The translations under genes were made by a program, and so were the position numbers. This document shows positions 1 through 24,218 of a stretch of 64,000 nucleotides of DNA, piece after piece (position 1 is the stretch's first letter; every line of letters begins with the position of its first letter). The stretch is from Myroides sp. (lineage in GTDB: Bacteria; Bacteroidota; Bacteroidia; Flavobacteriales; Flavobacteriaceae). Location of the stretch: the NCBI GenBank assembly GCA_036643355.1, contig JAVXSC010000001.1, positions 62,205 through 126,204 of the forward strand, read 5' to 3'. Below the pieces are notes generated by a model. That model searched no databases and was not told where the DNA came from. It saw only the letters and a program-made list of their open reading frames with translations.

Positions 1-112
1 ACTTTTTTATAATGCACTACGGGTTTTTATATATAAAAAAGAAACATTCTTATTGCAATGAAAGGATACGATTTCAGTAAAATGTGAAACATAAATAATT
101 AGTTCTGATATG

Positions 113-225
113 TTAAAAGAATACTTATATTTGAAATATATAAAGCGAAACAAAGATTAAAAACATTCGCATATCTTGCTATATGGGTATGAAATAGAGT
201 AGAATGTTTTGCTTATATATAAGTT
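113..225 (+). repeat. Promoter plus attI-like leader, copy 1
   Basis: 113-133 is identical to 10682-10702 and contains the -7 box TATATTTG. 169-225 matches 10740-10796 at 56/57. Identity stops right after GTT (223-225). Confidence 0.85.
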
Positions 226-322
226 ACAGGCAAGCGTGGAAAAATGCACTAAAATCACAAAAACGCTTTTCACAGTAATTTAAATAAATCTAACAGTTTT
301 ATGTTTTTAAAAAATTAGACTG

Positions 323-2830
323 ATGCAGTATAATGTCCCCAAACACATTAAAGGTCTCACAACTGAGGAATTAAAAACCTCTCGAAAAAAATTTGGTTTC
401 AATCAAATAGACGCTATTAAAAAAAATGCGTGGTATAGGATGTTGCTCGATATTTTGAAAGAACCAATGCTGCTTTTGCTTATTGCGGTAACAGTTATTT
501 ATATAATAGTTGGCAATTATTCCGAAGCTATTTTTATGTTGGGCGCTATTATTGTCGTTTCTGGCATTTCATTCTATCAAGACAATCGCAGTAAAAAAGC
601 ACTGGAAGCGTTGAAAAAATTGAACGAACCGTTAAGTACTGTTATCAGAGATTCAATCGTGATGCAAATTCCCACAAACGAAATTGCCGTTGGCGATTTA
701 TGCATTGTCGAAGAAGGAAAAATGATTAGTGCTGATGGCGAAATTGTGCACAGCAATGATTTTTCAGTTAATGAAGCCTCACTAACAGGTGAAAGTTTTT
801 CAGTATTTAAAAGTCAAGAAACCGAAGATAGAAAAATATATAGCGGAACGCTGGTAGTATCTGGTTTGGCCATCTTTAATGTAGAGAAAATTGGAGCAGA
901 AACCAAACTAGGGAAAATCAGTCAATCCATTCAAGATATCAAAGAAGTTCATTCGCCACTGCAAATTCAGATTACCAAATTTGTAAAGGGAATGGCGATT
1001 ATTGGTGTTATCGTGTTTCTGATGGTTTGGGGATTTAGTTACTGGAAATCAGGAGATATCATACAAAGTTTACTCGCTGGATTAACCTTGGCCATGTCTG
1101 TGCTTCCAGAAGAAATCCCTGTAGCCTTTACTACTTTTATGGCTTTAGGTGCCTGGAAATTAATGAGTGAAGGTGTGATAATTAAACGTAGTAGTGTGGT
1201 CGAAACATTGGGCAGTACTACAGTGATCTGTACGGACAAAACGGGAACTATTACTGAAAACTCCATGCGACTGAAACTTTTATTTGATTACAAATCAAAC
1301 AAGGTTTTTGAGGATACGCAATTCAATACACCTGAGCTTTCAGAGCTTATTCGTTTCGCTATGTGGAGTAGTGAACCCATTCCGTTTGATCCCATGGAAA
1401 AAACACTGCATCAAATTTATGAGCAAACACAATCCAATGATGAGCGGAAGAATTTTCAAATGATACACGAATATCCATTAGAAGGGAAACCTCCAATGAT
1501 GACGCATCTTTTTGAAAATAGTTTAGGTGAAAGAATTATTGCAGCCAAAGGTGCGCCCGAAGCCATTCTTGCCGTTTCTAATCTTACGGAAAGCGAGAAG
1601 GACAATTTACGACAACATATCATCAATTTCGGAGCGCAAGGGTACCGAGTACTGGGCGTGGCTAAATGTAATTTTGAAGGCAATCACTTTCCTGAAAAAC
1701 AACAAGATTTTTCTTTTGACTTTTTAGGATTCACTGTTTTCTACGATCCACCGAAAGCGAACATTCAAGAAGTATTTAAAAAGATATATGCTGCAGGCAT
1801 CAAGGTAAAAGTCATCACAGGAGACAATGCAGATACAACAAGGGCTATTGCGCATCAAGCAGGAATTATAAACGAAACAGCAGCAGTAAACGGAACCGAT
1901 ATCGTTCATCATACAGAAACCGAATTGATGGAACTTTATAAAAGCACCACACTGTTTACGCGTATGTTCCCCGAGGCAAAATTGGCAATTGTAAACGCTC
2001 TTAAAAAGAACGATGAAGTGGTGGCCATGCTGGGAGATGGCGTGAATGATGCACCTGCTTTGAAAGCAGCTCATATTGGTGTAGCGATGGGAAATAAAGG
2101 AACAGAAATCGCAAAAGCAGCGGCAGCATTGGTTATTGCAAATGATGATTTAGACAAATTGATCACTGGAATAGCGGCTGGAAGAAGAATTTATTCCAAT
2201 CTCAAAAAAGCCATTCAATATATTATATCCATTCATATTCCGATTATTCTAACGGTTTCTTTACCCTTGTTTTTGGGTTGGATATATCCGCATATTTTCA
2301 CACCGGTACATGTTATTTTCTTGGAGCTAATAATGGGGCCAACCTGTTCTATTGTCTATGAAAATGAGCCGATGGAAAAAAATACAATGCTAGAGAAACC
2401 ACGTAAAATGACCGAGACATTCTTGAGCTGGAAAGAATTAAGCATTAGTATTATTCAGGGATTGGCCATTACCGCAGGCGTTCTAACTGCATATCAGTTT
2501 GCTGTACAAAACGGTAGTAATGAAGCAACTACACGTTCAATAGTTTTCACAACTTTAGTGTTTGCAAATGTGTTTTTGAGTATGGTTAATCGCTCATTCA
2601 TTTACAGTGTATTTGATAGTTTTAAAAATAAAAATAGATTGTTCCCATTAATACTTGGAGCATCTTTGGTTTTACTTATTGCAATACTCTATATTCCGCC
2701 ATTCGCTTCTTTCTTTCAATTGAGTAGTATAAATTTCCAGCAATTCTTAATCTCAATTTTAATTGCTGCCGTGTCGGTATTGTGGGTCGAAGTGTATAAA
2801 TGGGTTAAAAGGTTGAAAATAAATAGCTAA
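323..2830 (+). CDS. Cation-translocating P-type ATPase (P2/Ca2+-type like)
   Basis: TGES, PEEIP, DKTGT phosphorylation site, KGAPE, TGD and GDGVND motifs; multiple TM segments. Confidence 0.95.
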   Translation: MQYNVPKHIKGLTTEELKTSRKKFGFNQIDAIKKNAWYRMLLDILKEPMLLLLIAVTVIYIIVGNYSEAIFMLGAIIVVSGISFYQDNRSKKALEALKKLNEPLSTVIRDSIVMQIPTNEIAVGDLCIVEEGKMISADGEIVHSNDFSVNEASLTGESFSVFKSQETEDRKIYSGTLVVSGLAIFNVEKIGAETKLGKISQSIQDIKEVHSPLQIQITKFVKGMAIIGVIVFLMVWGFSYWKSGDIIQSLLAGLTLAMSVLPEEIPVAFTTFMALGAWKLMSEGVIIKRSSVVETLGSTTVICTDKTGTITENSMRLKLLFDYKSNKVFEDTQFNTPELSELIRFAMWSSEPIPFDPMEKTLHQIYEQTQSNDERKNFQMIHEYPLEGKPPMMTHLFENSLGERIIAAKGAPEAILAVSNLTESEKDNLRQHIINFGAQGYRVLGVAKCNFEGNHFPEKQQDFSFDFLGFTVFYDPPKANIQEVFKKIYAAGIKVKVITGDNADTTRAIAHQAGIINETAAVNGTDIVHHTETELMELYKSTTLFTRMFPEAKLAIVNALKKNDEVVAMLGDGVNDAPALKAAHIGVAMGNKGTEIAKAAAALVIANDDLDKLITGIAAGRRIYSNLKKAIQYIISIHIPIILTVSLPLFLGWIYPHIFTPVHVIFLELIMGPTCSIVYENEPMEKNTMLEKPRKMTETFLSWKELSISIIQGLAITAGVLTAYQFAVQNGSNEATTRSIVFTTLVFANVFLSMVNRSFIYSVFDSFKNKNRLFPLILGASLVLLIAILYIPPFASFFQLSSINFQQFLISILIAAVSVLWVEVYKWVKRLKINS

Positions 2831-3044
2831 AATTACACAGTTAACGAAAACGCCAGCCCGTAATCGAGTAGACGGCTCCGCCAGTAACTGACGGAGTGCG
2901 CCTCTCACACCACCGAGCGTACGGGTCACGTACTCGGCGGTTCGCAAAGAGATGGGTTAAGTTGTAAATGTAATTCAGTTAAGGAAACATATCCTCTTTT
3001 CTTCAAGCGTTGTAAAGTAATGGTAGTGCCTAGAATAGGACTTT

Positions 3045-3094
3045 ACTCACGCTTTCTTATTGTTTTTTTTGGTGTTCGTGAATGCAAAGCATTT
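3045..3094. mobile_element. 50-bp insertion 1 in RT ORF (TTT at both junctions)
   Basis: Removal restores AIAQ-SPIL; 42/50 identical to 3721-3770. Confidence 0.85.
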
Positions 3095-3720
3095 GTGCTA
3101 TTGCCCAACCGCCTTTCCGTGTTCTGCTCCAAGCGTAGGCATGGTCTTGGTCTACACCTAATCGAATCAGGTTTTTCCTTTTCCTTTCGGGTTTTTTCCA
3201 ATGATGCCAAATGCAATAGCGCAGTCGGTTGCGAAGCCAACCATCTAAATCTCGTAATTTGCCCAAAATACTCGTGCCTTGGAAATAGTTCAACCATCCG
3301 CGTTGCACTTCTTTTATCTTGGCAATACGCTCTTCAAATGTGGCTGGTGTGGTTTTTCGGGTGATTGTTTTAAGTCGTTCTTTTAGTTTCTTCCATGCTT
3401 TTTCCGATACAATGAGTTGATACTTGTTCTTGCTTCCTTTCTCGTACGTAGGTGCAAATCCAAAACCCAAAATTGTGAAGTGGATTGGTTTTCTGATACC
3501 GCTCTTTTCTTCATTTATAGTTAATTTGAGTTTGTTTTTCAAAAACTTTTCAATTACCACTCTTGTAGCTTTAGCTTGATTGTGGCTTTTACAATAGATA
3601 CTAAAATCATCCGCATAACGTACAAATTTGTGTCCTCTTCGAGTCATTTCCTTATCCAATTGATGCAGTAAAATGTTCGACAATAATGGACTTAAAGGGC
3701 TTCCTTGCGGAACGCCTTTT

Positions 3721-3770
3721 ACTCACGCGTTTATATTTGTTTTTTTTGTATTCGTGAATGCAGAGCATTT
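3721..3770. mobile_element. 50-bp insertion 2 in RT ORF (TTT at both junctions)
   Basis: Removal restores KRR-KGVPQG; 42/50 identical to 3045-3094. Confidence 0.85.
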
Positions 3771-5089
3771 CTTCTCTTTCGTAGCTTTCCGTTGATTTTA
3801 ATAGGTGCTCTGAGCCATTTGCGTATGAGTTGCATGGTAGCATTGCATTTCACTTTTTGATAGATTAAATTCAGTAATAAACAGTGGTCAACTTCATCAA
3901 AGAAGTTTTTCAGGTCAATATCCACAATGTGGTTTAATCCTGAATGGATGTAATCCCGAGATTGTCCAACGGCTTGTCGGGCATTCTTGTGAGGTCTAAA
4001 TCCATAGCTGTAACTACTAAATTCGGGCTCAAAAAGTGGTGCAATAGTTTGTGCTAAGGCTTGTTGCAACACACGTTCTGTAGTGGTGGGAACACCCAAT
4101 AATCGAGTTTTCCCATTTCCTTTCGGAATTTCAATACCTAAAATGGGTTGTACTTGGTAGTTGCCTTGTTTGATTGCTTCAATCAGTTGTAGTTTCTTTT
4201 CAGAAAACACCTTGCGGAGCTCTCTTATAGAAACACCATCAACACCCGCACTGCCTTTATTGGCAATCACGTGTTCCAATGCTCTTTGAAGATTAAACGG
4301 TTGTACTACTCTAGTTATCATTTTAGTTGTTTTAAACTGTTTTCGTTAAGTAGGGCTACTATACGTTCCCTTACCTATTGAAAACCTCTTTACGTTCAGT
4401 CCTTCCTTGTTTGTGAGACCTATGCAGTTTCTATTTGCACCTCGTTTAACCTCAAGTACTATGACCTCTGCTGACTTCTTGGCTTGATTAACTCGTAACC
4501 ACCAAGACCTCCCCTGGTAAATGCTTTTTCCTTCCGTCTATCGCCGGTACATCTACATAACAATAATCTGATTTAATAGCATGTTCAGAACACTGTTTTG
4601 GACTTCGTATTGCTGTGGATACTCATCCTTATTGCTATGCCTCTTATGTACTTTCTGTTCGTCGGTACAGACTTTTGCAGTTTACCCACCCGCCTGCTGG
4701 CTCATTCGCTAAAAATGTCCACTGGACATTTTCTTTACGCTCTGCCCTCTTCAGTGCATACCTCACGATAAACCACCTTACAGCTTGCTAACGATTCGGG
4801 GTTTCAATCCGCTCGTAAGGGACTTGCACCCTCTGGAAAAATAACACCCCGAAAACTTGGTTCATAAAACTAAATTTGTATTTTTGAACTATTTGAAAAG
4901 CTTTCGGGGTGTGTCCTGCATATGCAGGGCACACACAGGCGTTTGGCTCAATGGCGGGTTAAGTGGTTAATTGAACATTCTACCTCGCATCAACTTTTGT
5001 GGTGTATTGACAGTTTTGTGCTCCGAAATCCGCCACTGCGCCAAGCGCCAAAACGTTAGCTGTAATGCTCCAAAAAAAATGTTCCAAAA

Positions 5090-5971
5090 ATGAAAGAGTA
5101 CGAAAGTATAGAAGAAACATTGCTATTTTACGGAGTAAAAGTCTGTGAGCCTTATTATATCTCCACAGGAAAGGAAATTTTAAAATTTCCTGAAAGGCCG
5201 TTCCGTATGGATTTTTATGCCTTTTGCATCTGTATTTCCGGATATATTGATTTAGAAATAGACAACAAAAAATTCACCGTCTCGCAAAATGGTTTTCTGG
5301 TTTCTGCACCGTCCACGGTAGTTCGATTTTTGTCACATTCAAAAAATTTCAGGATGAAACTGCTGTTTTTTGACAAAAATTTTCTGCTTAAAAATATATC
5401 TAACCCGTTTTTCATCGAAGGGCTCAATTTGTTTTCCGATTCCAATTTTACAGTGACTTCGTCTGATAAAGAACAATCTACACGTTTAATCCTGCTGCTC
5501 CAATATCTTGAACAGCAAACAGAACGAAAAAATCATCGTCTAAAAGATGTTATCCGCACTATCATTATCAATCTGCTTTTGGAAATCAGTATCGTCATAG
5601 AAACCGAAAACAAACAGAGCATTAAAAACGCTCTTTCTGACCCCAACAATATTTATCAGAAATTTAAAAATTTAGTTCAGGAAAACGTATTGTCGCACCG
5701 GGGCGTACAATTCTATGCTGAAAAATTATATATCAGCAACAAGCATCTTATAGAAATCATAAAAAAACACTCCGGCAAAACGCCTCATGTCATGATAGAT
5801 GAAACACTGATTAAAATTACCTACGTGTTGTTAGGAAATCCAGAAAAAACAATCTCTGAAATTGCCTTTGAATTGGGATTCAGTTCTACGTCAGCCTTCG
5901 GAAGATTTTTTAAAAAACAAGTGGGCATTTCACCACAGGAATTCCGAAACCAGCTCGCTATCAAAAAGTAA
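5090..5971 (+). CDS. AraC family transcriptional regulator
   Basis: C-terminal ISEIAFELGFSSTSAFGRFFKKQVGISP double-HTH signature. Confidence 0.93.
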   Translation: MKEYESIEETLLFYGVKVCEPYYISTGKEILKFPERPFRMDFYAFCICISGYIDLEIDNKKFTVSQNGFLVSAPSTVVRFLSHSKNFRMKLLFFDKNFLLKNISNPFFIEGLNLFSDSNFTVTSSDKEQSTRLILLLQYLEQQTERKNHRLKDVIRTIIINLLLEISIVIETENKQSIKNALSDPNNIYQKFKNLVQENVLSHRGVQFYAEKLYISNKHLIEIIKKHSGKTPHVMIDETLIKITYVLLGNPEKTISEIAFELGFSSTSAFGRFFKKQVGISPQEFRNQLAIKK

Positions 5972-6056
5972 AAAAGGGTATATAAATCCTGAATTTCAGG
6001 ATACCTAACGATTGTAGCATTTCCTAACTTTAAGTAGAATTTAAAATATAATAACT

Positions 6057-7826
6057 ATGTATTATAGTAATGGAAATTATGAAGCATTTGCCCGTCCTCT
6101 GAAACCGGATGGCGTGGACGAAAAATCAGCTTATCTTATCGGATCCGGATTAGCATCTCTTGCCGCCGCAACCTTCCTGGTGCGTGATGCCCAAATGAAA
6201 GGCAATAGGATCCATATTTTGGAAGAGCTTGCCCTTCCCGGTGGCAGTATGGACGGCATCTGGAACGAGCAGAAGGGCTACATCATTCGTGGCGGCCGGG
6301 AAATGGAAATACATTTTGAAACATTGTGGGATTTGTTCCGCTCCATTCCGTCTTTAGAGACAGAGGGCGTTTCTGTCCTGGACGAATTTTATTGGTTGAA
6401 TAAAAAAGATCCAAGTTTTTCCCATGCACGTCTGATAGAAAAACAAGGACAGAGGGTTGCTTCCGATGGAAAACTTACTTTATCTCAAAAAGCCATTCAG
6501 GAACTGATAGAATTATTTCTGACCCCGGAAGAAAAACTACAGGATGTAAAGATTAATGAGGTTTTTACAGACGAATTTTTCAAATCCAATTTCTGGGCGT
6601 ATTGGGCAACGATGTTTGCGTTTGAGCCTTGGGCAAGTGCGATGGAAATGCGCCGTTATTTGCTGCGTTTTATTCATCATGTGGGACATGTTGCCGATAT
6701 GTCCTCTCTTCGTTTTACCAAGTATAACCAATACGAATCACTGATTAAACCTTTGGTGAAATATTTGGAAAGTCACGGTGTGCGATTCCAATATAACACT
6801 CAAGTGCAAAATGTAATTATAGATCATATCGACGGTAAAAAAGTTGCAAAAAAAATAGAACTTGTCCAAGACGGAAAAGCAGAGACAATCAGCCTTACAG
6901 AAAATGATTTGGTGTTTATTACCAATGGTTCTATCACGGAAAACAGCACATATGGCGATAACCATACCCCTGCTCCTGTAAAACATACTATCGGTGGAAG
7001 TTGGCAATTATGGAAAAATATCGCACAACAGGATACGGACTTTGGTAGGCCTGAAAAATTCTGTGAAAACATTCCCGAAGCAAACTGGGTTATTTCCGGT
7101 AGCATTACCTTTTCCGACAACAGAGTGGTTCCTTACATTGAAAAAATATGCAAAAAAGATCCGCTTAGTGGTTCCATCGTTACCAGCGGACCTGTAACCA
7201 TTCAAGACTCCAATTGGTGGTATGGTTTCTCTATCAGTCGCCAACCGCATTTTAAAATCCAAAAAAGCAATGAGTTGATCGTTTGGGTATATGGTTTATA
7301 TTCAGATAAATCAGGGAATTTCGTTCACAAAAAAATTACAGAGTGTACCGGAATAGAACTTTGTGAAGAATTGCTGTATCATTTGGGTGTTCCTGAAACA
7401 GAAATAAGCGAAATAGCGGCAAGTGCCAATACCATTCCTTGTCGTATGCCTTATATTACGACGTATTTTATGCCGCGTGCACTGGGTGACCGCCCATTGG
7501 TTGTACCCAAAAACTCGGTAAACCTGGCTTTCATCGGAAACTATGCTGAGACAGAAAAAGATACTGTTTTTACTACCGAATACTCCGTGCGTACCGCCAT
7601 GGAAGCAGTTTATACCCTATTAAACGTGGACAGAGGTGTACCGGAAGTATTTGCTTCGTCTTTCGACATCCGGGTATTGTTAAAATCCATTTATTACCTG
7701 AATGATGAAAAAGGATTAAAGGATATCAAATTGCCTTGGCTCATTTCTATTTTAGAAAAATATGGTCTCAAAAAAATAGAAGGCACCTATTTGGAAGAAC
7801 TTCTGAAAGAATCTCAATTAATCTAA
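6057..7826 (+). CDS. ohyA: Oleate hydratase (myosin-cross-reactive antigen family)
   Basis: [15 protein letters not shown]-terminus, GSGLAS FAD motif, [21 protein letters not shown]. Confidence 0.93.
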
Positions 7827-7840
7827 ATTTTTAAAATAAA

Positions 7841-9436
7841 ATGAGTACAAATAATTCCGAAAGACACGCATATTTCGTTGGTGGAGGATTGGCAAGTTTG
7901 TCAGGTGCAGTTTACCTTGTGGAAGACGGCGGATTCAAAGGAGAAAATATCCATATCATTGAAGCACTGCCTATTTTAGGCGGAAGCAACGATGGTGCCG
8001 GCTCCAAAGAAAAGGGCTTCATCTGCCGTGGCGGGAGAATGCTGAATGAAGAAACCTATGAAAATTTTTGGGACTTGACCTCCAGAATTCCTTCTTTGGA
8101 AGTGCCCAATATTTCGGTAAAAGATGAGATTTTGGCTTTCGACCACGCCAATCCTACGCACGCCCATGCACGCCTGATTGACAAAGACGGAAACCGCCTG
8201 CATGTAACCGATATGGACTTTAATACGCAGGATAGGATGAAATTCCTGAAACTTTTCTTTGCAGACGAAAACGATTTGGACAATGTTACGATCCGCGACT
8301 GGTTCGATGACCATTTCTTCACCACCAATTTTTGGTATATGTGGCAAACTACGTTTGCTTGGCAGGAATGGAGCAGTATTTTCGAGTTTCAACGTTACAT
8401 GAAACGGATGCTGTTGGAATTTTCCCGCATCGAAACATTGGAAGGTGTTACCCGTACGCCCTACAACCAATACGAATCCGTGATTTTGCCTTTGAAAAAA
8501 TTCCTCGACAAATACAACGTGGATTTTTCTTTAAGAAAAACCGTTACCGACCTCAATTTCAAAGAGGGCGACGGCATTACCGTTTCTGAAATTGTATGTG
8601 AAAACGCTGAAGGAAATACTGAAAAAATTACGGTAAACGAAGACGATTTGGTATTTTTTACCAACGGCTGCATTACGGACAATTCCGACAATGGCGATTA
8701 CAAAACACCCGCAAAATACCTTCCGGGCAATCCGCCAAGTTTTGCATTGTGGCGTAAAATAGCCGACAAAAAACCGGGCAAACTCGGTAATCCCGATCCG
8801 TTTTTTACCAAACCGGATGAGACCAAATGGTATTCGTTTACCCCTACTTTCAAGGGCAACAAAATGCTTCAATTGATTGAGCAATATAGCGGTAACAAAC
8901 CCGGAAGTGGCGCATTGATGACCTTTAAAGATTCTTCGTGGAGAATGTCGATTGTGGTAGCGGCCCAACCGCATTTTAAAGCACAGGGCGATGATATGAC
9001 CATACTTTGGGGGTACGGTTTGTATCCGGATGCGATTGGAGATTTTATAAAAAAAACGATGATTGACTGTACCGGCGAAGAAATTCTGACCGAGCTTATC
9101 CACCACCTGCATTTTGAAAAATACGAGCAGGAGATAAAAGACAGCGTTATCGACGTCATTCCTTGTATGATGCCATATATCGACGCATTATTCCAGCCAA
9201 GAGCCAAAGCAGACCGTCCGGCTGTGGTGCCGGAAGGAAGTACCAATCTGGCACTTATCAGTCAGTTTGTGGAAATTCCGGAAGATATGGTTTTTACCGA
9301 AGAATATTCGGTACGGGCTGCAAGGACAGCCGTTTACACGCTTTTAAATTTAGATAAGAAAGTCACTCCCGTAACAGAATATTGGAAACGCCCCGATGTG
9401 TTGGCAAAAGCCATTCATACATCTTATAGAAGTTAA
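7841..9436 (+). CDS. Second oleate hydratase, short-N-terminus type
   Basis: GGGLAS, RGGRMLN, YNQYES, FTEEYSVR. Confidence 0.9.
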   Translation: MSTNNSERHAYFVGGGLASLSGAVYLVEDGGFKGENIHIIEALPILGGSNDGAGSKEKGFICRGGRMLNEETYENFWDLTSRIPSLEVPNISVKDEILAFDHANPTHAHARLIDKDGNRLHVTDMDFNTQDRMKFLKLFFADENDLDNVTIRDWFDDHFFTTNFWYMWQTTFAWQEWSSIFEFQRYMKRMLLEFSRIETLEGVTRTPYNQYESVILPLKKFLDKYNVDFSLRKTVTDLNFKEGDGITVSEIVCENAEGNTEKITVNEDDLVFFTNGCITDNSDNGDYKTPAKYLPGNPPSFALWRKIADKKPGKLGNPDPFFTKPDETKWYSFTPTFKGNKMLQLIEQYSGNKPGSGALMTFKDSSWRMSIVVAAQPHFKAQGDDMTILWGYGLYPDAIGDFIKKTMIDCTGEEILTELIHHLHFEKYEQEIKDSVIDVIPCMMPYIDALFQPRAKADRPAVVPEGSTNLALISQFVEIPEDMVFTEEYSVRAARTAVYTLLNLDKKVTPVTEYWKRPDVLAKAIHTSYRS

Positions 9437-9454
9437 CAAATAAATAAAAATACA

Positions 9455-10354
9455 ATGATAACATTTAAAAATGTAACCGTGGCAGGAAGTGGTGTTTTGG
9501 GTTACCAAATTGCTTTCCAGACAGCTTTTTACGGTTTTAATGTAACCGTTTACGACATCAATGATGAGGTATTGGAAAAAGCCAAAGCGAAATTTGATAT
9601 TTTGGCGGAATCGTATAAAAAAGATTTGAAGGCAACGGAAGAACAGCTTGCAGCCACTAAAGCAAATTTGCAATACAATTCCAATTTGGCAGAAGCGGTG
9701 CAAGATGCCGATTTGCTTATCGAAGCCGTTCCGGAAAATCCGCAGATTAAAATCGGGTTCTACGAACAGTTGGCGAAAGTAGCACCCGCTAAAACTGTTT
9801 TTGCGACCAACTCTTCCACTATGCTACCAAGCCAGTTTGCCGAATATACAGGTCGTCCTGCACAATTCGTAGCCTTACACTTTGCCAATGAAATCTGGAA
9901 ACACAATACCGGAGAAGTGATGAAACATCCCGGTACTTCAGACGAAACATTTAATTCCGTTTTAGAATTTGCCAAACAAATCGGAATGGTGGCATTGCCA
10001 ATATACAAAGAGCAGCCGGGATATATCGTAAATTCCTTATTGGTACCGCTTTTGAGTGCTGCGTTGGATTTGTATGTGAACGAAGTGGCAGATGTGGAAA
10101 CCATCGACAAAACATGGATGGTCGCAACCGGTGCACCAGTTGGACCATTTGGTATTTTGGATGTGGTAGGCGTTACTACTGCATACAACATCAATAAAAT
10201 GGCCGCTGATAAAACACAGAATCCTACAAAAATAAAAGCGGCGGCGATGTTGAAAGAAAACTACATCGATAAAAACAAACTTGGTGTAGCCACTGGAGAA
10301 GGTTTCTATAAATACCCGAATCCAGCTTATTGGGAAAAAAACTTTCTGAAGTAA
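9455..10354 (+). CDS. 3-hydroxyacyl-CoA dehydrogenase
   Basis: GSGVLG Rossmann motif, EAVPE, ATNSS, LHF, GPF..LD.VG, G.GFY.Y. Confidence 0.92.
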   Translation: MITFKNVTVAGSGVLGYQIAFQTAFYGFNVTVYDINDEVLEKAKAKFDILAESYKKDLKATEEQLAATKANLQYNSNLAEAVQDADLLIEAVPENPQIKIGFYEQLAKVAPAKTVFATNSSTMLPSQFAEYTGRPAQFVALHFANEIWKHNTGEVMKHPGTSDETFNSVLEFAKQIGMVALPIYKEQPGYIVNSLLVPLLSAALDLYVNEVADVETIDKTWMVATGAPVGPFGILDVVGVTTAYNINKMAADKTQNPTKIKAAAMLKENYIDKNKLGVATGEGFYKYPNPAYWEKNFLK

Positions 10355-10378
10355 TTTTTCTGAAAGATCAATATATTG

Positions 10379-10415
10379 AAACGCTCTTTTTTTCTGTTAA
10401 GAAAGAGCGTTTTTT
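10379..10415 (+). terminator. Intrinsic terminator
   Basis: AAACGCTCTTT...AAAGAGCGTTT followed by a T run. Confidence 0.8.
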
Positions 10416-10437
10416 GTATGCTGATAAGCACTACAGC

Positions 10438-10613
10438 TAATAACTAAGCTTTAGCTTCGCTCTGTTCGGGCAAAGCCCTGGGGTCGTCTTGTCTGGAAGA
10501 CAAGAGATGAAAGCCCGTTGAACGGAACCGGAGTAGCTTAATACGTATTATGGAGTTTTCAAAGTGTAGCTTTAAGACATACTAGCAGTAATTTTACGAT
10601 TACTGCTTTTTTT
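10438..10613 (+). repeat. 176-bp structured trailer repeat, copy 1, ending in a terminator
   Basis: 6 mismatches versus 11446-11621; several internal stems; AGCAGTAAT/ATTACTGCT hairpin plus T run. Confidence 0.92.
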
Positions 10614-10681
10614 GTGATTAAAATTGTTTACTTTGTGCTGATCATTTACATCTTAATTATTAAATACCTTTTAGCAAGATT

Positions 10682-10796
10682 TTAAAAGAATACTTATATT
10701 TGGTATAAACACAATACGATATAAAAAACATAAACATATGCATATCTTGCTATATGGGTATGAAATAGAGTAGAATGTTTCGCTTATATATAAGTT
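10682..10796 (+). repeat. Promoter plus attI-like leader, copy 2
   Basis: Matches 113-225 in two blocks; ends in GTT at 10794-10796. Confidence 0.85.
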
Positions 10797-10821
10797 GTGT
10801 GCAAACTTTAAAAATAGAAAT

Positions 10822-11436
10822 ATGCCCAAATTAGAAAGGAATTTAATTATTGAAAGATGTCCTCATTGTAATGTTGATAAACCAAATTTAATCATCGCAG
10901 CTCAATTTGAAACTAATTCATTCAATAATTCGAATGTTAGACATTGGAAAGCTTATTCTTGCCAAAGATGCGGCGGAGTGACTACAGCTTGGGCATACCC
11001 TGCTAACATGGAAATTCGTGAAATGTTTCCTAAATCTTTGAAAGTGGATGAATCTATTCCAGGTAGAGCAAAAGAATATTTAAATCAAGCAATTGATAGT
11101 AAACACGCACCAGCAGGTTCAATAATGCTTTCAGCAAGTTCTGTTGATTCAATGCTTAAAGAGAAAGGATACAAAGTCGGAAATCTTTACTCTAGAATTA
11201 ATAAAGCTGTGGATGATCATTTAATAACTAAAGAAATGGCTGAATGGGCACATGACGTAAGATTAGATGCAAATGATCAAAGACATGCAGATGAAGATGC
11301 TGAATTACCTAATGAAGATGACGCACAAAGAATAATCGATTTTACTTTAGCTTTAGCACAATTTTTATTCGTTATGCCTTCAAGAGTTCAAAATGGAATT
11401 AATCAAGCAAAAATTGTAAACGAAACTAAACAATAA
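10822..11436 (+). CDS. Zn-ribbon plus DUF4145 (HEPN-like) protein
   Basis: CPHC...CQRC; C-terminal LYSRI..A...HLIT..MAEWAHDVRLDANDQRH. ATG at 10822 preferred over the TTG that overlaps the GTT core. Confidence 0.8.
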   Translation: MPKLERNLIIERCPHCNVDKPNLIIAAQFETNSFNNSNVRHWKAYSCQRCGGVTTAWAYPANMEIREMFPKSLKVDESIPGRAKEYLNQAIDSKHAPAGSIMLSASSVDSMLKEKGYKVGNLYSRINKAVDDHLITKEMAEWAHDVRLDANDQRHADEDAELPNEDDAQRIIDFTLALAQFLFVMPSRVQNGINQAKIVNETKQ

Positions 11437-11445
11437 GTCAGCACA

Positions 11446-11621
11446 TAATAACTAAGCTTTAGCTTCGCTCTGTTCGGGCAGAGCCCTCGGGTCGTCTTGT
11501 CTGGAAGACAAGAGATGAAAGCCCGTTGAACGGAACCGGAGTAGCTTATTACGTATTATGGAGTTTTCGAAGTGTAGCTTTAAGATATACTAACAGTAAT
11601 TTTACGATTACTGCTTTTTTT
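11446..11621 (+). repeat. 176-bp structured trailer repeat, copy 2
   Basis: 170/176 identical to 10438-10613. Confidence 0.92.
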
Positions 11622-11782
11622 ATGGTTAATTTAGCATTTTTTGTTTGTCTAAACCATTGATTATAGGCATAAAACCTTGAATTATGAATACCTAATGAAT
11701 TTATGAAATATTAACTAAATTTGAAAGGAGTTTGTGTACTTTTTTCACAGACTGACGTTGTGCGTAATTTTACCTAATAGAA

Positions 11783-12616
11783 ATGTCAGATTTAATAAAA
11801 ATTGAAAAACTTAAACTAGAGAAGCTATTTGATATGAGTGGTGGTTACGTTTTAGACTTTTCAAATAGAACATTTTCGGACTTCGTATATGAATCAATTA
11901 ATATTGAAGCTTATTCAGATCAATATTCTGATTTAGGTGAATCTAAAGCACATAGATTACGAACGATATGGAATAAAGAATCTAATTTTAAGGTAGGCAA
12001 GTTATTAACTGATATGGTTTCACATTGGAAAGAATCTAAAATATTATCACTAACTGAGATTTCAAATTCTGAACAAGTTTTACATGAAGAATGTGTAAAA
12101 ATTGCTTACCGACTTTCTCAGGATATTATTGTTGATGAGATTGAAGTTATTAAAGAAGTTGGTAATGATAAGGATATTAATTTACTTGCTAAATCAATAC
12201 GAGAAAGTATAGAAAAAAATGAACCAGAAGTTGCTTTAGACAGATTACATACATACGTTATGAAATTTCTAAGAAGATTATGCGAAAATCATAAAATAGA
12301 AGTCAAAAGCGATGAATCGTTAAATGCAATTTTTGGTAAATATGTAAAGTTTATTACCAATAATAATTTAATTGAATCTAAGATGTCTGAACTAATTTTG
12401 AAGTATTCAATAAATGTTATTGAGGCTTTTAATGATGTAAGAAATAATAGAAGTTTTGCACACGACAACAAAATACTAAATTATGATGAAAGTATTCTTA
12501 TATTCAATAATGTAACAAACTCTCTTAAGTTTATTGAATCCATTGAAAATAAACTAGAACAAGAAACTAAATTGAAACAAACTGAATCTCCTAATTGGGG
12601 AAGCTTACCTTACTAA
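11783..12616 (+). CDS. Abortive infection family protein (Abi_C/HEPN C-terminus)
   Basis: N-terminal GGYVLDFSNRTF..SKA.RLR domain; C-terminal FNDVRNNRSFAHDN R-x-H motif. Confidence 0.78.
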   Translation: MSDLIKIEKLKLEKLFDMSGGYVLDFSNRTFSDFVYESINIEAYSDQYSDLGESKAHRLRTIWNKESNFKVGKLLTDMVSHWKESKILSLTEISNSEQVLHEECVKIAYRLSQDIIVDEIEVIKEVGNDKDINLLAKSIRESIEKNEPEVALDRLHTYVMKFLRRLCENHKIEVKSDESLNAIFGKYVKFITNNNLIESKMSELILKYSINVIEAFNDVRNNRSFAHDNKILNYDESILIFNNVTNSLKFIESIENKLEQETKLKQTESPNWGSLPY

Positions 12617-13008
12617 AACTAACTGCACATAGGATAGATATTAAAGGAGAATCTATGCGCAAAAAATTAAAAAATAATTACTAAATTTATACCCAGATGA
12701 ATCGATTTTGAGCACCTACTTTACTATGCTCACTTTCATCCGCTGCGAATGGTTCACTTTATCCGTTCTATCCAGCATCCTTCTAATTGCTATTGTTGTG
12801 ATTCGGCATCGATCAGCAAAGAAAAAATATGAGCACCCAGACTATCTTCAGCATCTTGAAACAGACTGATAAAAAAATTTCATTTTAAGACCGAGGCTTA
12901 AACCGAATATTACATTTTTAAAGTTAACGCTACTGTACTACTTTCTACAAAGCTGTTTTACAATTACATATACTTTTTGTAACTTCATAAAAATTAAAAT
13001 TGCGTATT

Positions 13009-23266: not shown

Positions 23267-23369
23267 ATATTTTTTTATTTATTCATTATATCTTTGATAT
23301 TGTACGTTGTAGTATTTTGAAACAAATCTGATACATTGTTTGGGTTTTGTTTTAATTTTTAATGTTCTT

Positions 23370-24218
23370 GTTCTCGACTACCGCTCGAACTGACGTGGAT
23401 TGTGAGTTTTAGAAATATATAGCTTCGGGATCTCCATTGCAGTAAATAGGTATATTTCTGTTTTTCTTTTCTTTTACGCCCAGGCTTTATTTTACAGCTT
23501 GGAAGTCGTGAATCTTACGGTTTGAAAGATTAAAAGAAACAAAAATCTTTTTTTTGATCTTGCCTCAGCTCAAAAACGGTTGAACTTTTCCTTGTTCACT
23601 ATCTGATCGAAATGTCGCTCCGCTGCCCGATCATCTTACGCTCTCTTCGTCGGTTCAACTATTGTTTTTTACGTCCAGCTCTATTTTATATTTTGGAAGT
23701 CGTGAACCTTACGGTTTCGTCTGTTCAACTATTCCCGATTAAAATCGGGACAGGCTGTTTTTTTGCTAATGGCGCTTTGATTCTCGATATCTAAGCAAAT
23801 TTGTTTTAATCATTACTTATTTTGGTTCTAGACTACCTCTCGAACTGACGTTGGATTGGAGTGGTAGAAATATTTTGCTTTGAAATCTCTATTTCAGTAA
23901 TAGATACACTTCGGTTTCTCTGTACTTTTAGGTGCTTTATATTATTTTAGAAATATTAAATTCCCTATACTCTCTTCTCGTGAGACCCCTTGTCAAGCAA
24001 GGGGTGACCGTAAACTGTTATTTTTAGTTTGGATGTATTGGTTCTCGACGGGGCTAGAAAAAAGTATCAAAAATCTTTTATTGCGGTCAAGCTTTTGATA
24101 CATGTGGATTGATTTATTTTGTTTTTGTATTAGGGTATTTTAGTGAAGAGTAATTGGTTCTCGACTACCGCTTGAACTGACTTGGGGTTGGAGATATCTC
24201 GACTACGCTCGATATGAC
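23370..24218 (-). repeat. Cluster of REP-like palindromes (GTCA foot on minus strand) at 23370-23394, 23825-23849, 24157-24181, 24196-24218
   Basis: Repeated GTTCTCGACTACCGCTCGAACTGAC variants; partial copy near 51073. Confidence 0.75.
23531..23779. repeat. Long nested-hairpin repeat, copy 1
   Basis: Direct repeat of 33366-33545 with about 70 extra internal bp. Confidence 0.85.

Follow-up and report, generated by a model that had tools for sequence, protein, structure and literature searches.

A likely decayed integron-like cassette array, lacking its recombinase, in the genome of a Myroides species

The stretch examined here, hereafter the window, comprises 64,000 nucleotides (nt) of a Myroides sp. 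genome (G000:C1:62205-126204, under the labels used here for genomes, contigs and loci), the source assembly of which is 2.8 Mb in size, 34% in GC content and 79% complete. The window contains two docking (attI-like) sites and four gene cassettes, with no recombinase beside them. We consider it likely that this stretch is a decayed, recombinase-less integron-like cassette array of the Bacteroidota and that its cassettes are mobilized by a tyrosine recombinase that is a relative of the rAID-1 enzyme and distinct from the integron integrase IntI. A sequence-only reading of this DNA had previously proposed four gene blocks, each bracketed by a GTT core and its own inverse core, as a cassette system; all seven core strings that it quoted lie where it had placed them. 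The sites and cassettes are as follows.

110..225, + strand: attI-like site A (the 'leader'), with promoter-like box TATATTTG at 126 and crossover at G223|TT; profile match at 152-225, E 0.0027 over the whole genome
224..2862, + strand: cassette 1, P-type ATPase (coding sequence 323-2830), inverse core 2856-2862; Pfam and four contigs
4935..5057, + strand: attC-like hairpin belonging to cassette 1, with its end at G5055|TT; covariance model, and the same hairpin after the ATPase in L203 and L204
5056..10440, + strand: cassette 2 (5.4 kb), AraC (5090-5971), oleate hydratases (6057-7826 and 7841-9436) and 3-hydroxyacyl-CoA dehydrogenase (9455-10354), inverse core 10428-10440; Pfam and NCBIfam, cores 7/7
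10679..10796, + strand: attI-like site B, box at 10695 and crossover at G10794|TT; best profile match in the genome, E 0.0017
10795..11448, + strand: cassette 3, DUF4145 gene (from ATG, 10822-11436), inverse core 11441-11448; Pfam, cores 5/7
11758..12621, + strand: cassette 4, Abi_C gene (11783-12616), its 3' site cut off; Pfam, IS21 junction at 12622

The anatomy of such a platform can be read in relatives, in which a recombinase gene is followed by 77-140 nt ending in TATAAACAA|GTT and then by cassettes of the form TT-gene-inverse core-hairpin-G. A search with the recombinase linked to an IS91-type element returned stand-alone homologues of 340-375 amino acids, lying immediately 5' of arrays and co-oriented with them. 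At 28 of 36 recombinase loci, a motif ending in TATAAACAA|GTT was picked 77-140 nt after the recombinase stop codon, and the attI profile consists of 28 sites lying 3' of the recombinase in other Flavobacteriaceae genomes. When this profile was applied to G000, the two window leaders were the only matches under E 5, and each ended at GTT. Judged by sequence, the leader is a putative primary attI-like site, normally single and directly 3' of the recombinase gene. The leader, cassette and trailer had been taken earlier for a native repeat unit; instead, the leader is attI-like, the trailer is an IS91-type end that replaces the hairpin, and behind the second trailer lies an IS1182 end in place of a leader. 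The leader box is described as promoter-like by the promoter consensus TAnnTTTG.

The earlier claim that the window has only one conventional attC-like hairpin holds: a covariance model built from 58 related sites has a single match in the window (4929-5061, E 3e-7). This hairpin folds with a z score of -2.1 on the bottom strand and -1.4 on the top strand, and the arms of such sites covary (0.351, compared with 0.09 after shuffling, the former value being inflated by the relatedness of the sequences). The same model finds matches in 133 of 150 genomes of the genus, and arrays located behind a recombinase carry up to 21 sites per 20 kb and up to 20+ cassettes, on the same strand. The 3' spacer of the flavobacterial sites is 2-4 nt longer than the 5' spacer, although longer 3' spacers occur in IntI-linked controls, too. 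A search of the sites against Rfam, including the candidate Flavo-1 RNA, gave no match.

Complementarity between the two cores of a cassette had been offered as the hallmark of the system. A blind scan for GTT/AAC cores around 2216 genes of G000 yielded a score of at least 9 in 29 cases, compared with 18-26 in shuffled pairings, and hence no enrichment; because such a scan returns matches at the level of chance, the cores were tested against independently defined sites. For this purpose we used the arrays of 24 regions, in which 111 of 122 candidate sites were kept (11 were dropped first) and only neighbors at most 1.6 kb apart were considered. In these related arrays, the 7 nt that follow GTT match the inverse core of their own cassette at 6.09 of 7 positions, compared with 2.40 for non-cognate cores (67 pairs). 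No value as high was obtained in 10,000 permutations, while eight of the 67 pairs scored 3 or less. Core complementarity is thus not diagnostic alone, and is real when sites have been defined independently. Position 8 of the core is a conserved mismatch (0.03), beyond which four further positions pair, accounting for the match of 12/14 previously reported for the hydratase block. The four core pairs of the window score 5, 7, 5, and 4 of 7, respectively. The first three, which jointly have a p of about 2e-4 on the permutation null, are real cassette ends; the fourth (12625) is spurious, because an IS21 istB gene has its 3' end at 12622-12765 and GCACATA is part of the istB coding sequence.

Movement of individual cassettes is apparent in related contigs, which bear out two expectations of the sequence-only reading: breakpoints at G|TT and TAA, and variable gene content between the same flanks. 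Four metagenome contigs are 95-99.5% identical to the ATPase cassette from exactly 223 to 2863 and have different neighboring genes and hairpins; all are free of the intron described below, have a perfect inverse core, start at GTT (223), and end at TAAC. In L203 and L204 the cassette keeps the 3' hairpin of the window, and the sequence diverges after the GTT of that hairpin, while in L202 and L210 a different hairpin body directly follows the AAC. Two partial contigs show, respectively, the ATPase followed by the trailer and the ATPase preceded by the trailer and an IS1182 end. A duplicated cassette in G101 has kept its 3' hairpin and changed its 5' hairpin, indicating that the main crossover lies at G|TT, as in integrons. 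For the hydratase block, sequencing run X13 shows the end of the block leading to AAC and then to the initial 28 bases of a hairpin-type arm, with no trailer. No cassette flanks were seen around some 30 more distant ATPase homologues, which were inspected by eye; a search of 230 other genomes of the class yielded no copy of the hydratase block; the plasmid matches listed for the hydratases (25 of 319) were distant Gram-positive hydratases; and the DUF4145 and Abi cassettes had no second context among the related loci retrieved. The GC content of the cassettes is 0.27-0.40, and that of the flanking DNA 0.38. The presence of two oleate hydratases and a dehydrogenase in one cassette (6057-10354) is an observation in its own right, and hydratases encoded on plasmids of lactic acid bacteria resemble the first of the two at 67%.

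The candidate recombinase family was found in 89 of 150 genomes at the genus level, in 148 of 251 across the family, and in 86 of 151 across the class; the thresholds differ between these tallies, and the class tally includes the unpublished genome G785, on which no conclusion here depends, as well as the IS91-type gene of G000. Within the genus, the recombinase accompanies the sites: it was present in one of 17 genomes with no site match, 20 of 47 with one to four, 21 of 30 with five to nine, and 47 of 55 with 10 or more (site tallies were counted up to 22 per genome, and kin are not independent). The protein keeps all catalytic residues and lacks the insertion of ~40 residues that is present in two IntI controls, and the candidates score 183-212 bits on TIGR02249, below the cut-off of 265. 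Its predicted fold combines a tyrosine recombinase with an additional alpha/beta domain of ~90 amino acids at the N terminus (pLDDT 88). This domain resembles the XPB N-terminal domain (Z 6.1-6.2, root mean square deviation 2.0, 56 residues), a weak match that lies below the trust level of the tool; Pfam support is also weak (DUF5710 in 5/55, HARP in 1/55), and a single-sequence fold of the domain was unusable (pTM 0.39). The IS91-linked recombinase had itself been a candidate for the main integrase, and was dropped after the stand-alone homologues upstream of arrays and the attI-like sites were found. Solo recombinases of the IS91-linked clade, with no transposase or array nearby, occur in L095-L098 (G150, G093, G173, and G165).

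That this recombinase would carry out the recombination is proposed from site anatomy, breakpoints, and co-occurrence, and several observations count against the proposal. The sequence-only reading had placed the recombinase elsewhere, in agreement with our finding no cognate recombinase in the window or in the 79%-complete assembly; yet the same absence is a weakness, as the search of G000 returned only IS91-type, Xer-like, and ICE-type (integrative and conjugative element) genes and a broken fragment on C17, behind which no docking site lies. Sites also persist without the gene, matches being present in 43 of 60 other genus genomes that are recombinase-free. No circle junction was seen in the available contigs, and one of the 28 training sites of the attI profile (L131) was mis-picked by the pattern. 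The tree support for grouping with rAID-1, which comes from a quick search, is moderate. Finally, hairpin bodies are exchanged at the AAC side as well, which a strict integron model does not predict; these swaps could reflect weak strand choice at sites without an extrahelical base, or rolling-circle moves by an IS91-type element.

Several mobile elements, listed below, interrupt or abut the sites of the window.

1..23, - strand: end of an IS982-type element, abutting the platform; a DDE_Tnp_1_3 gene lies just upstream at G000:C1:61410-62150, and the terminal repeats match
2863..4934, - strand: group II intron with a frameshifted reverse transcriptase (RT), at TA|AC of the inverse core; Rfam D1-D4 and D5/6, RT pieces
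10441..10636, - strand: 'trailer' 1, the end (3' of the transposase) of an element with an IS91 transposase and a tyrosine recombinase, at AA|C; 90% identity with the terminus of the full element at G000:C53, and with L039
11449..11640, - strand: 'trailer' 2, a second IS91-type end; repeat D1, 92% identical
11642..11756, - strand: IS1182 element end, directly before G|TT; 96% identical to the IS1182 end at G000:C2
12622..12774, + strand: IS21 remnant (istB 3' end) containing the supposed fourth core; annotated istB match from exactly 12622, translation

As had been recognized from the sequence, the intron interrupts the end of the ATPase cassette, splitting GCCCGTA|AC. The intron-free junction (2862>4935) is present in three of four public sequencing runs, and the empty site is also found in L203 and L204. 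A plasmid array of Chryseobacterium carries a related intron at the same position, together with an IS110 in another site. The closest relatives of the intron RT are encoded on plasmids of Bacteroidota (49-65%), compared with 44% for RTs of Enterobacterales (pairwise identities). Within the RT gene, a 61-nt repeat occurs at 3042-3102 and 3718-3778, near the break in the RT; other runs lack ~50 nt at both positions.

The trailers match the sequence lying 3' of the transposase gene in a complete element, with an IS91 transposase and a tyrosine recombinase, elsewhere in G000 (C53). All 11 distinct trailer starts come after AAT and the trailer-free alleles have AAC, so the IS91-type cut is placed at AA|C. 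The other end of these copies, where readable, is GTTCAAC, mostly followed by a hairpin body. Trailer back-joints seen in contigs were not accepted as circles, being ambiguous owing to the repeat. One IS91 and recombinase element (L042, G101:C1:510669-514676) lies off-target, inside a transporter-like gene at a core-like GCTAAC. IS1182 ends are positioned as precisely, with eight of eight distinct ends directly before GTT[AG]. At the IS21 junction, other contigs extend into istB-like sequence upstream of 12622. In L200:12247-13640 (NZ_CP041688.1), a hairpin site is disrupted by an IS110, which brings the element types homing to these sites to at least four; the same array also has repeated gene-less cassettes.

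From these observations we propose that the recombinase would be supplied in trans, or would have been supplied by an earlier host or ICE; that it would bind a double-stranded docking site and a folded single-stranded hairpin and cut at G|TT; and that circular cassettes would thereby be inserted behind the leader promoter, which would drive the cassette genes. Three parasites may then have homed to the sites (the intron at TA|AC, the IS91 and recombinase element at AA|C, and IS1182 before G|TT), and deletions may have left IS91-type ends behind as 'trailers'. The window platform probably came from an ICE, because 24-226 and the trailer-leader unit recur, with other cargo, in a conjugative region of L060. 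There the unit is 85.5% identical over 373 nt and lies between other cassettes, and an ICE site in Paenimyroides viscosum resembles 24-226 at 88%. Against such an origin, an ICE backbone was searched for in G000 and not found. Apart from new insertions at the two docking sites, the array has probably ceased to change, because the sole remaining hairpin, that of the ATPase cassette, is split by the intron.

More cassettes or sites are present elsewhere in G000 (C2:7040-12560, C11:3378-5230, C18:6230-7100, C53:8050-11300, and C1:51926-52058), and several of these scattered cassettes carry TIR, OLD-like, or unknown genes and perfect cores. Further along the window, at 23350-24190, three to four dispersed repeats of ~30-80 nt (GTTCTCGACTACCGCTCGAACTGAC family) lie between an AlkB-like gene and a DnaE2-type/Y-polymerase cluster.

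An alternative, which we judge unlikely, is that the array was built mainly by the IS91-type element, replicating by rolling circle from its AA|C end through the leader and cassette and moving end-leader-cassette units in the manner of ISCR; the transposase would act with or without its own recombinase and would stop at the next end or inverse core. A full element is indeed present in the same genome (C53), and 17 of 17 readable copies of related elements sit directly after AAC/AAT (scored by eye; two copies cut by contig ends and two divergent ones were unscored). Modules of trailer and leader, or of trailer and IS1182, recur around other cassettes (L060, L211, and L278), and the hairpin swaps on the AAC side would fit. 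Nevertheless, the transposase occurs in just 14 of 151 genus genomes, compared with the 133 of 150 that have sites, the leader is homologous to the site behind the stand-alone recombinase, and the L042 copy, in its transporter-like gene, behaves as a parasite would.

That the array is an ordinary cluster of attC sites lacking integron-integrases (CALIN), served in trans by a canonical IntI, appears very improbable. The core grammar is integron-like, the crossover is at G|TT, and in a class 1 integron the blaVEB-1 cassette terminates in such a site; against this, TIGR02249 detected canonical IntI in none of 151 genus and none of 22 family genomes, as opposed to 93 of 301 genomes of the phylum, which served as a positive control and included a single one from class Bacteroidia. 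No IntI with the insertion domain was found beside such arrays in Flavobacteriaceae, and an extrahelical base in the L box, on the 5' arm, present in 28 of 33 IntI-linked controls, is found in 11 of 74 distinct flavobacterial sites, a comparison that is alignment-based and not structural. The suggestion of an IntI-like recombinase, taken in the strict sense, was therefore abandoned, since the candidate lacks the IntI insertion and the genus has no IntI. The sole canonical IntI found in Bacteroidia (L081, G241:C40) is accompanied by an attC with an extrahelical base. Lastly, we give scarcely any credence to a native leader-cassette-trailer unit in which the trailer is both recombination site and terminator: although the unit recurs with other cargo in L060 and the trailer contains a terminator-like hairpin, the trailer is continuous with the 3' flank of the IS91 transposase, and the idea is largely refuted by trailer-free alleles, in which the same cassette ends occur with AAC and a hairpin.

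The reading that we prefer, a recombinase-less remnant of a system akin to rAID-1, can be set beside known systems. In the accessible part of the account by Ross et al. (bioRxiv 10.1101/471110), rAID-1 comprises a 5' XerD-like recombinase, co-oriented low-GC genes, and intergenic repeats reminiscent of integrons, and occurs in over half of Bacteroidales genomes; a motif lies 3' of the recombinase stop, and close recombinase homologues are restricted to Bacteroidales. That portion of the preprint defines no crossover, attI, or attC. The flavobacterial platforms share the recombinase position, gene orientation, integron-like repeats, and 3' motif. Membership of rAID-1 is set at >44% identity to BF9343_RS08045; in place of that protein, we compared the recombinases of two plasmid clusters that we assigned to the rAID type ourselves. 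Local identity to these was 32-55%, with a best full-length value of 40% (E 2e-75), and the flavobacterial recombinases group with both in a quick tree of 26 rows (SH-aLRT 85). The two clusters have hairpins of ~40 nt and cognate core scores of 3.8 and 4.6 of 5, compared with 2.0 and 3.1. Sites of rAID-1 are ~40 nt with ATT right cores, whereas flavobacterial sites are ~120 nt with GTT; rAID-1 carries its recombinase in the locus, which the window does not. The cargo also differs, consisting of orphan immunity genes of the type VI secretion system in rAID-1 and of metabolic and defence genes here (ATPase, hydratase, DUF4145, and Abi_C genes in the window, with no immunity gene). Like rAID-1, the window has at least two co-oriented genes with a GC content of ≤41%, a trait that discriminates little given the flanking GC of 0.38.

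Integrons, as described in the available text of PMC8946536, share the TT-gene-inverse core-hairpin-G cassette, cognate cores, the G|TT crossover, and a non-hairpin primary site with a promoter-like box. A GTT primary site adjoins the integrase gene in the relatives, and the window has the site without the gene. The flavobacterial recombinase differs from IntI by its missing insertion, extra N-terminal domain, and co-oriented upstream position, and the hairpins differ in mostly lacking the extrahelical base, in their longer 3' spacer, and in bodies that also swap at the AAC side. In its workings the system is integron-like, while its recombinase falls outside IntI, and it is best filed as a flavobacterial, long-site relative of rAID-1. 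The window intron resembles group IIC-attC introns (PMC3001079, as far as accessible) in lying in the bottom strand of the site, antisense to the cassette genes, although the site that it occupies is no canonical attC. IS91-family elements with an integron-like tyrosine recombinase (10.1101/542381, in its accessible part) have the same Y2 transposase and a recombinase without the IntI insertion; those in the window sit backwards at AA|C of cassette sites, a target rule that the portions available of the literature on such elements did not yield. Our literature search found no account of this site anatomy in Flavobacteriaceae; the supplementary motifs and locus tables of Ross et al. may overlap with it, and subscription papers lay outside the search.

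Parts of this anatomy recur around resistance genes. An intact platform in L112:887-4057 (G071:C21) has as its first cassettes erm(F), reversed within its cassette, and an APH(3') gene. Truncated recombinase homologues are located ahead of tet(X3) on plasmids of Acinetobacter and ahead of blaVEB-3 on those of Klebsiella. Inspection by eye places tet(X3) between a truncated recombinase homologue (TnpF/'xerD') and an inverse core with the 5' arm of a hairpin, of flavobacterial type, in L195:5067-7245 (NZ_CP041297.1) and L196, and blaVEB-3 after a truncated recombinase and a leader-like stretch in L197:5142-6763. The attI profile had no match at E<=1 in the regions upstream of tet(X3), blaVEB-3, or rAID. 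In L201:2501-3578, a class 1 integron carries blaVEB-1 with the same G|TT boundary at its start, and the covariance model matches the attC of this cassette. The xerD-tet(X3) unit has been published, in the accessible text without a cassette reading (PMC8635130). This gene-capture system probably supplied some clinical resistance genes.

More tentatively, it is quite possible, if short of probable, that Bacteroidota harbor a second integron lineage missed by current tools, in which an insertion-less recombinase would read hairpins mostly free of extrahelical bases by means of its extra N-terminal domain, akin to the XPB damage-recognition/HARP fold, and would exchange at either core; rAID-1 would represent the gut branch of this lineage, with short sites, and tet(X3), blaVEB, and erm(F) would derive from cassettes of the lineage. 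Surveys with IntegronFinder, as far as the available text goes, list hardly any integrons for Bacteroidetes (PMC9024848) and recover none from Elizabethkingia (PMC11523902), in contrast to the sites present in 133 of 150 genus genomes and the recombinase in 148 of 251 family genomes. The system is widespread and apparently under-described, and the window is a decayed instance of it. The anatomy offers a testable mechanism for rAID-1, which has so far been called reminiscent of integrons, and raises the question of whether the IntI insertion and extrahelical bases are required for hairpins to recombine; in addition, it suggests where the resistance genes erm(F), tet(X3), and blaVEB came from.

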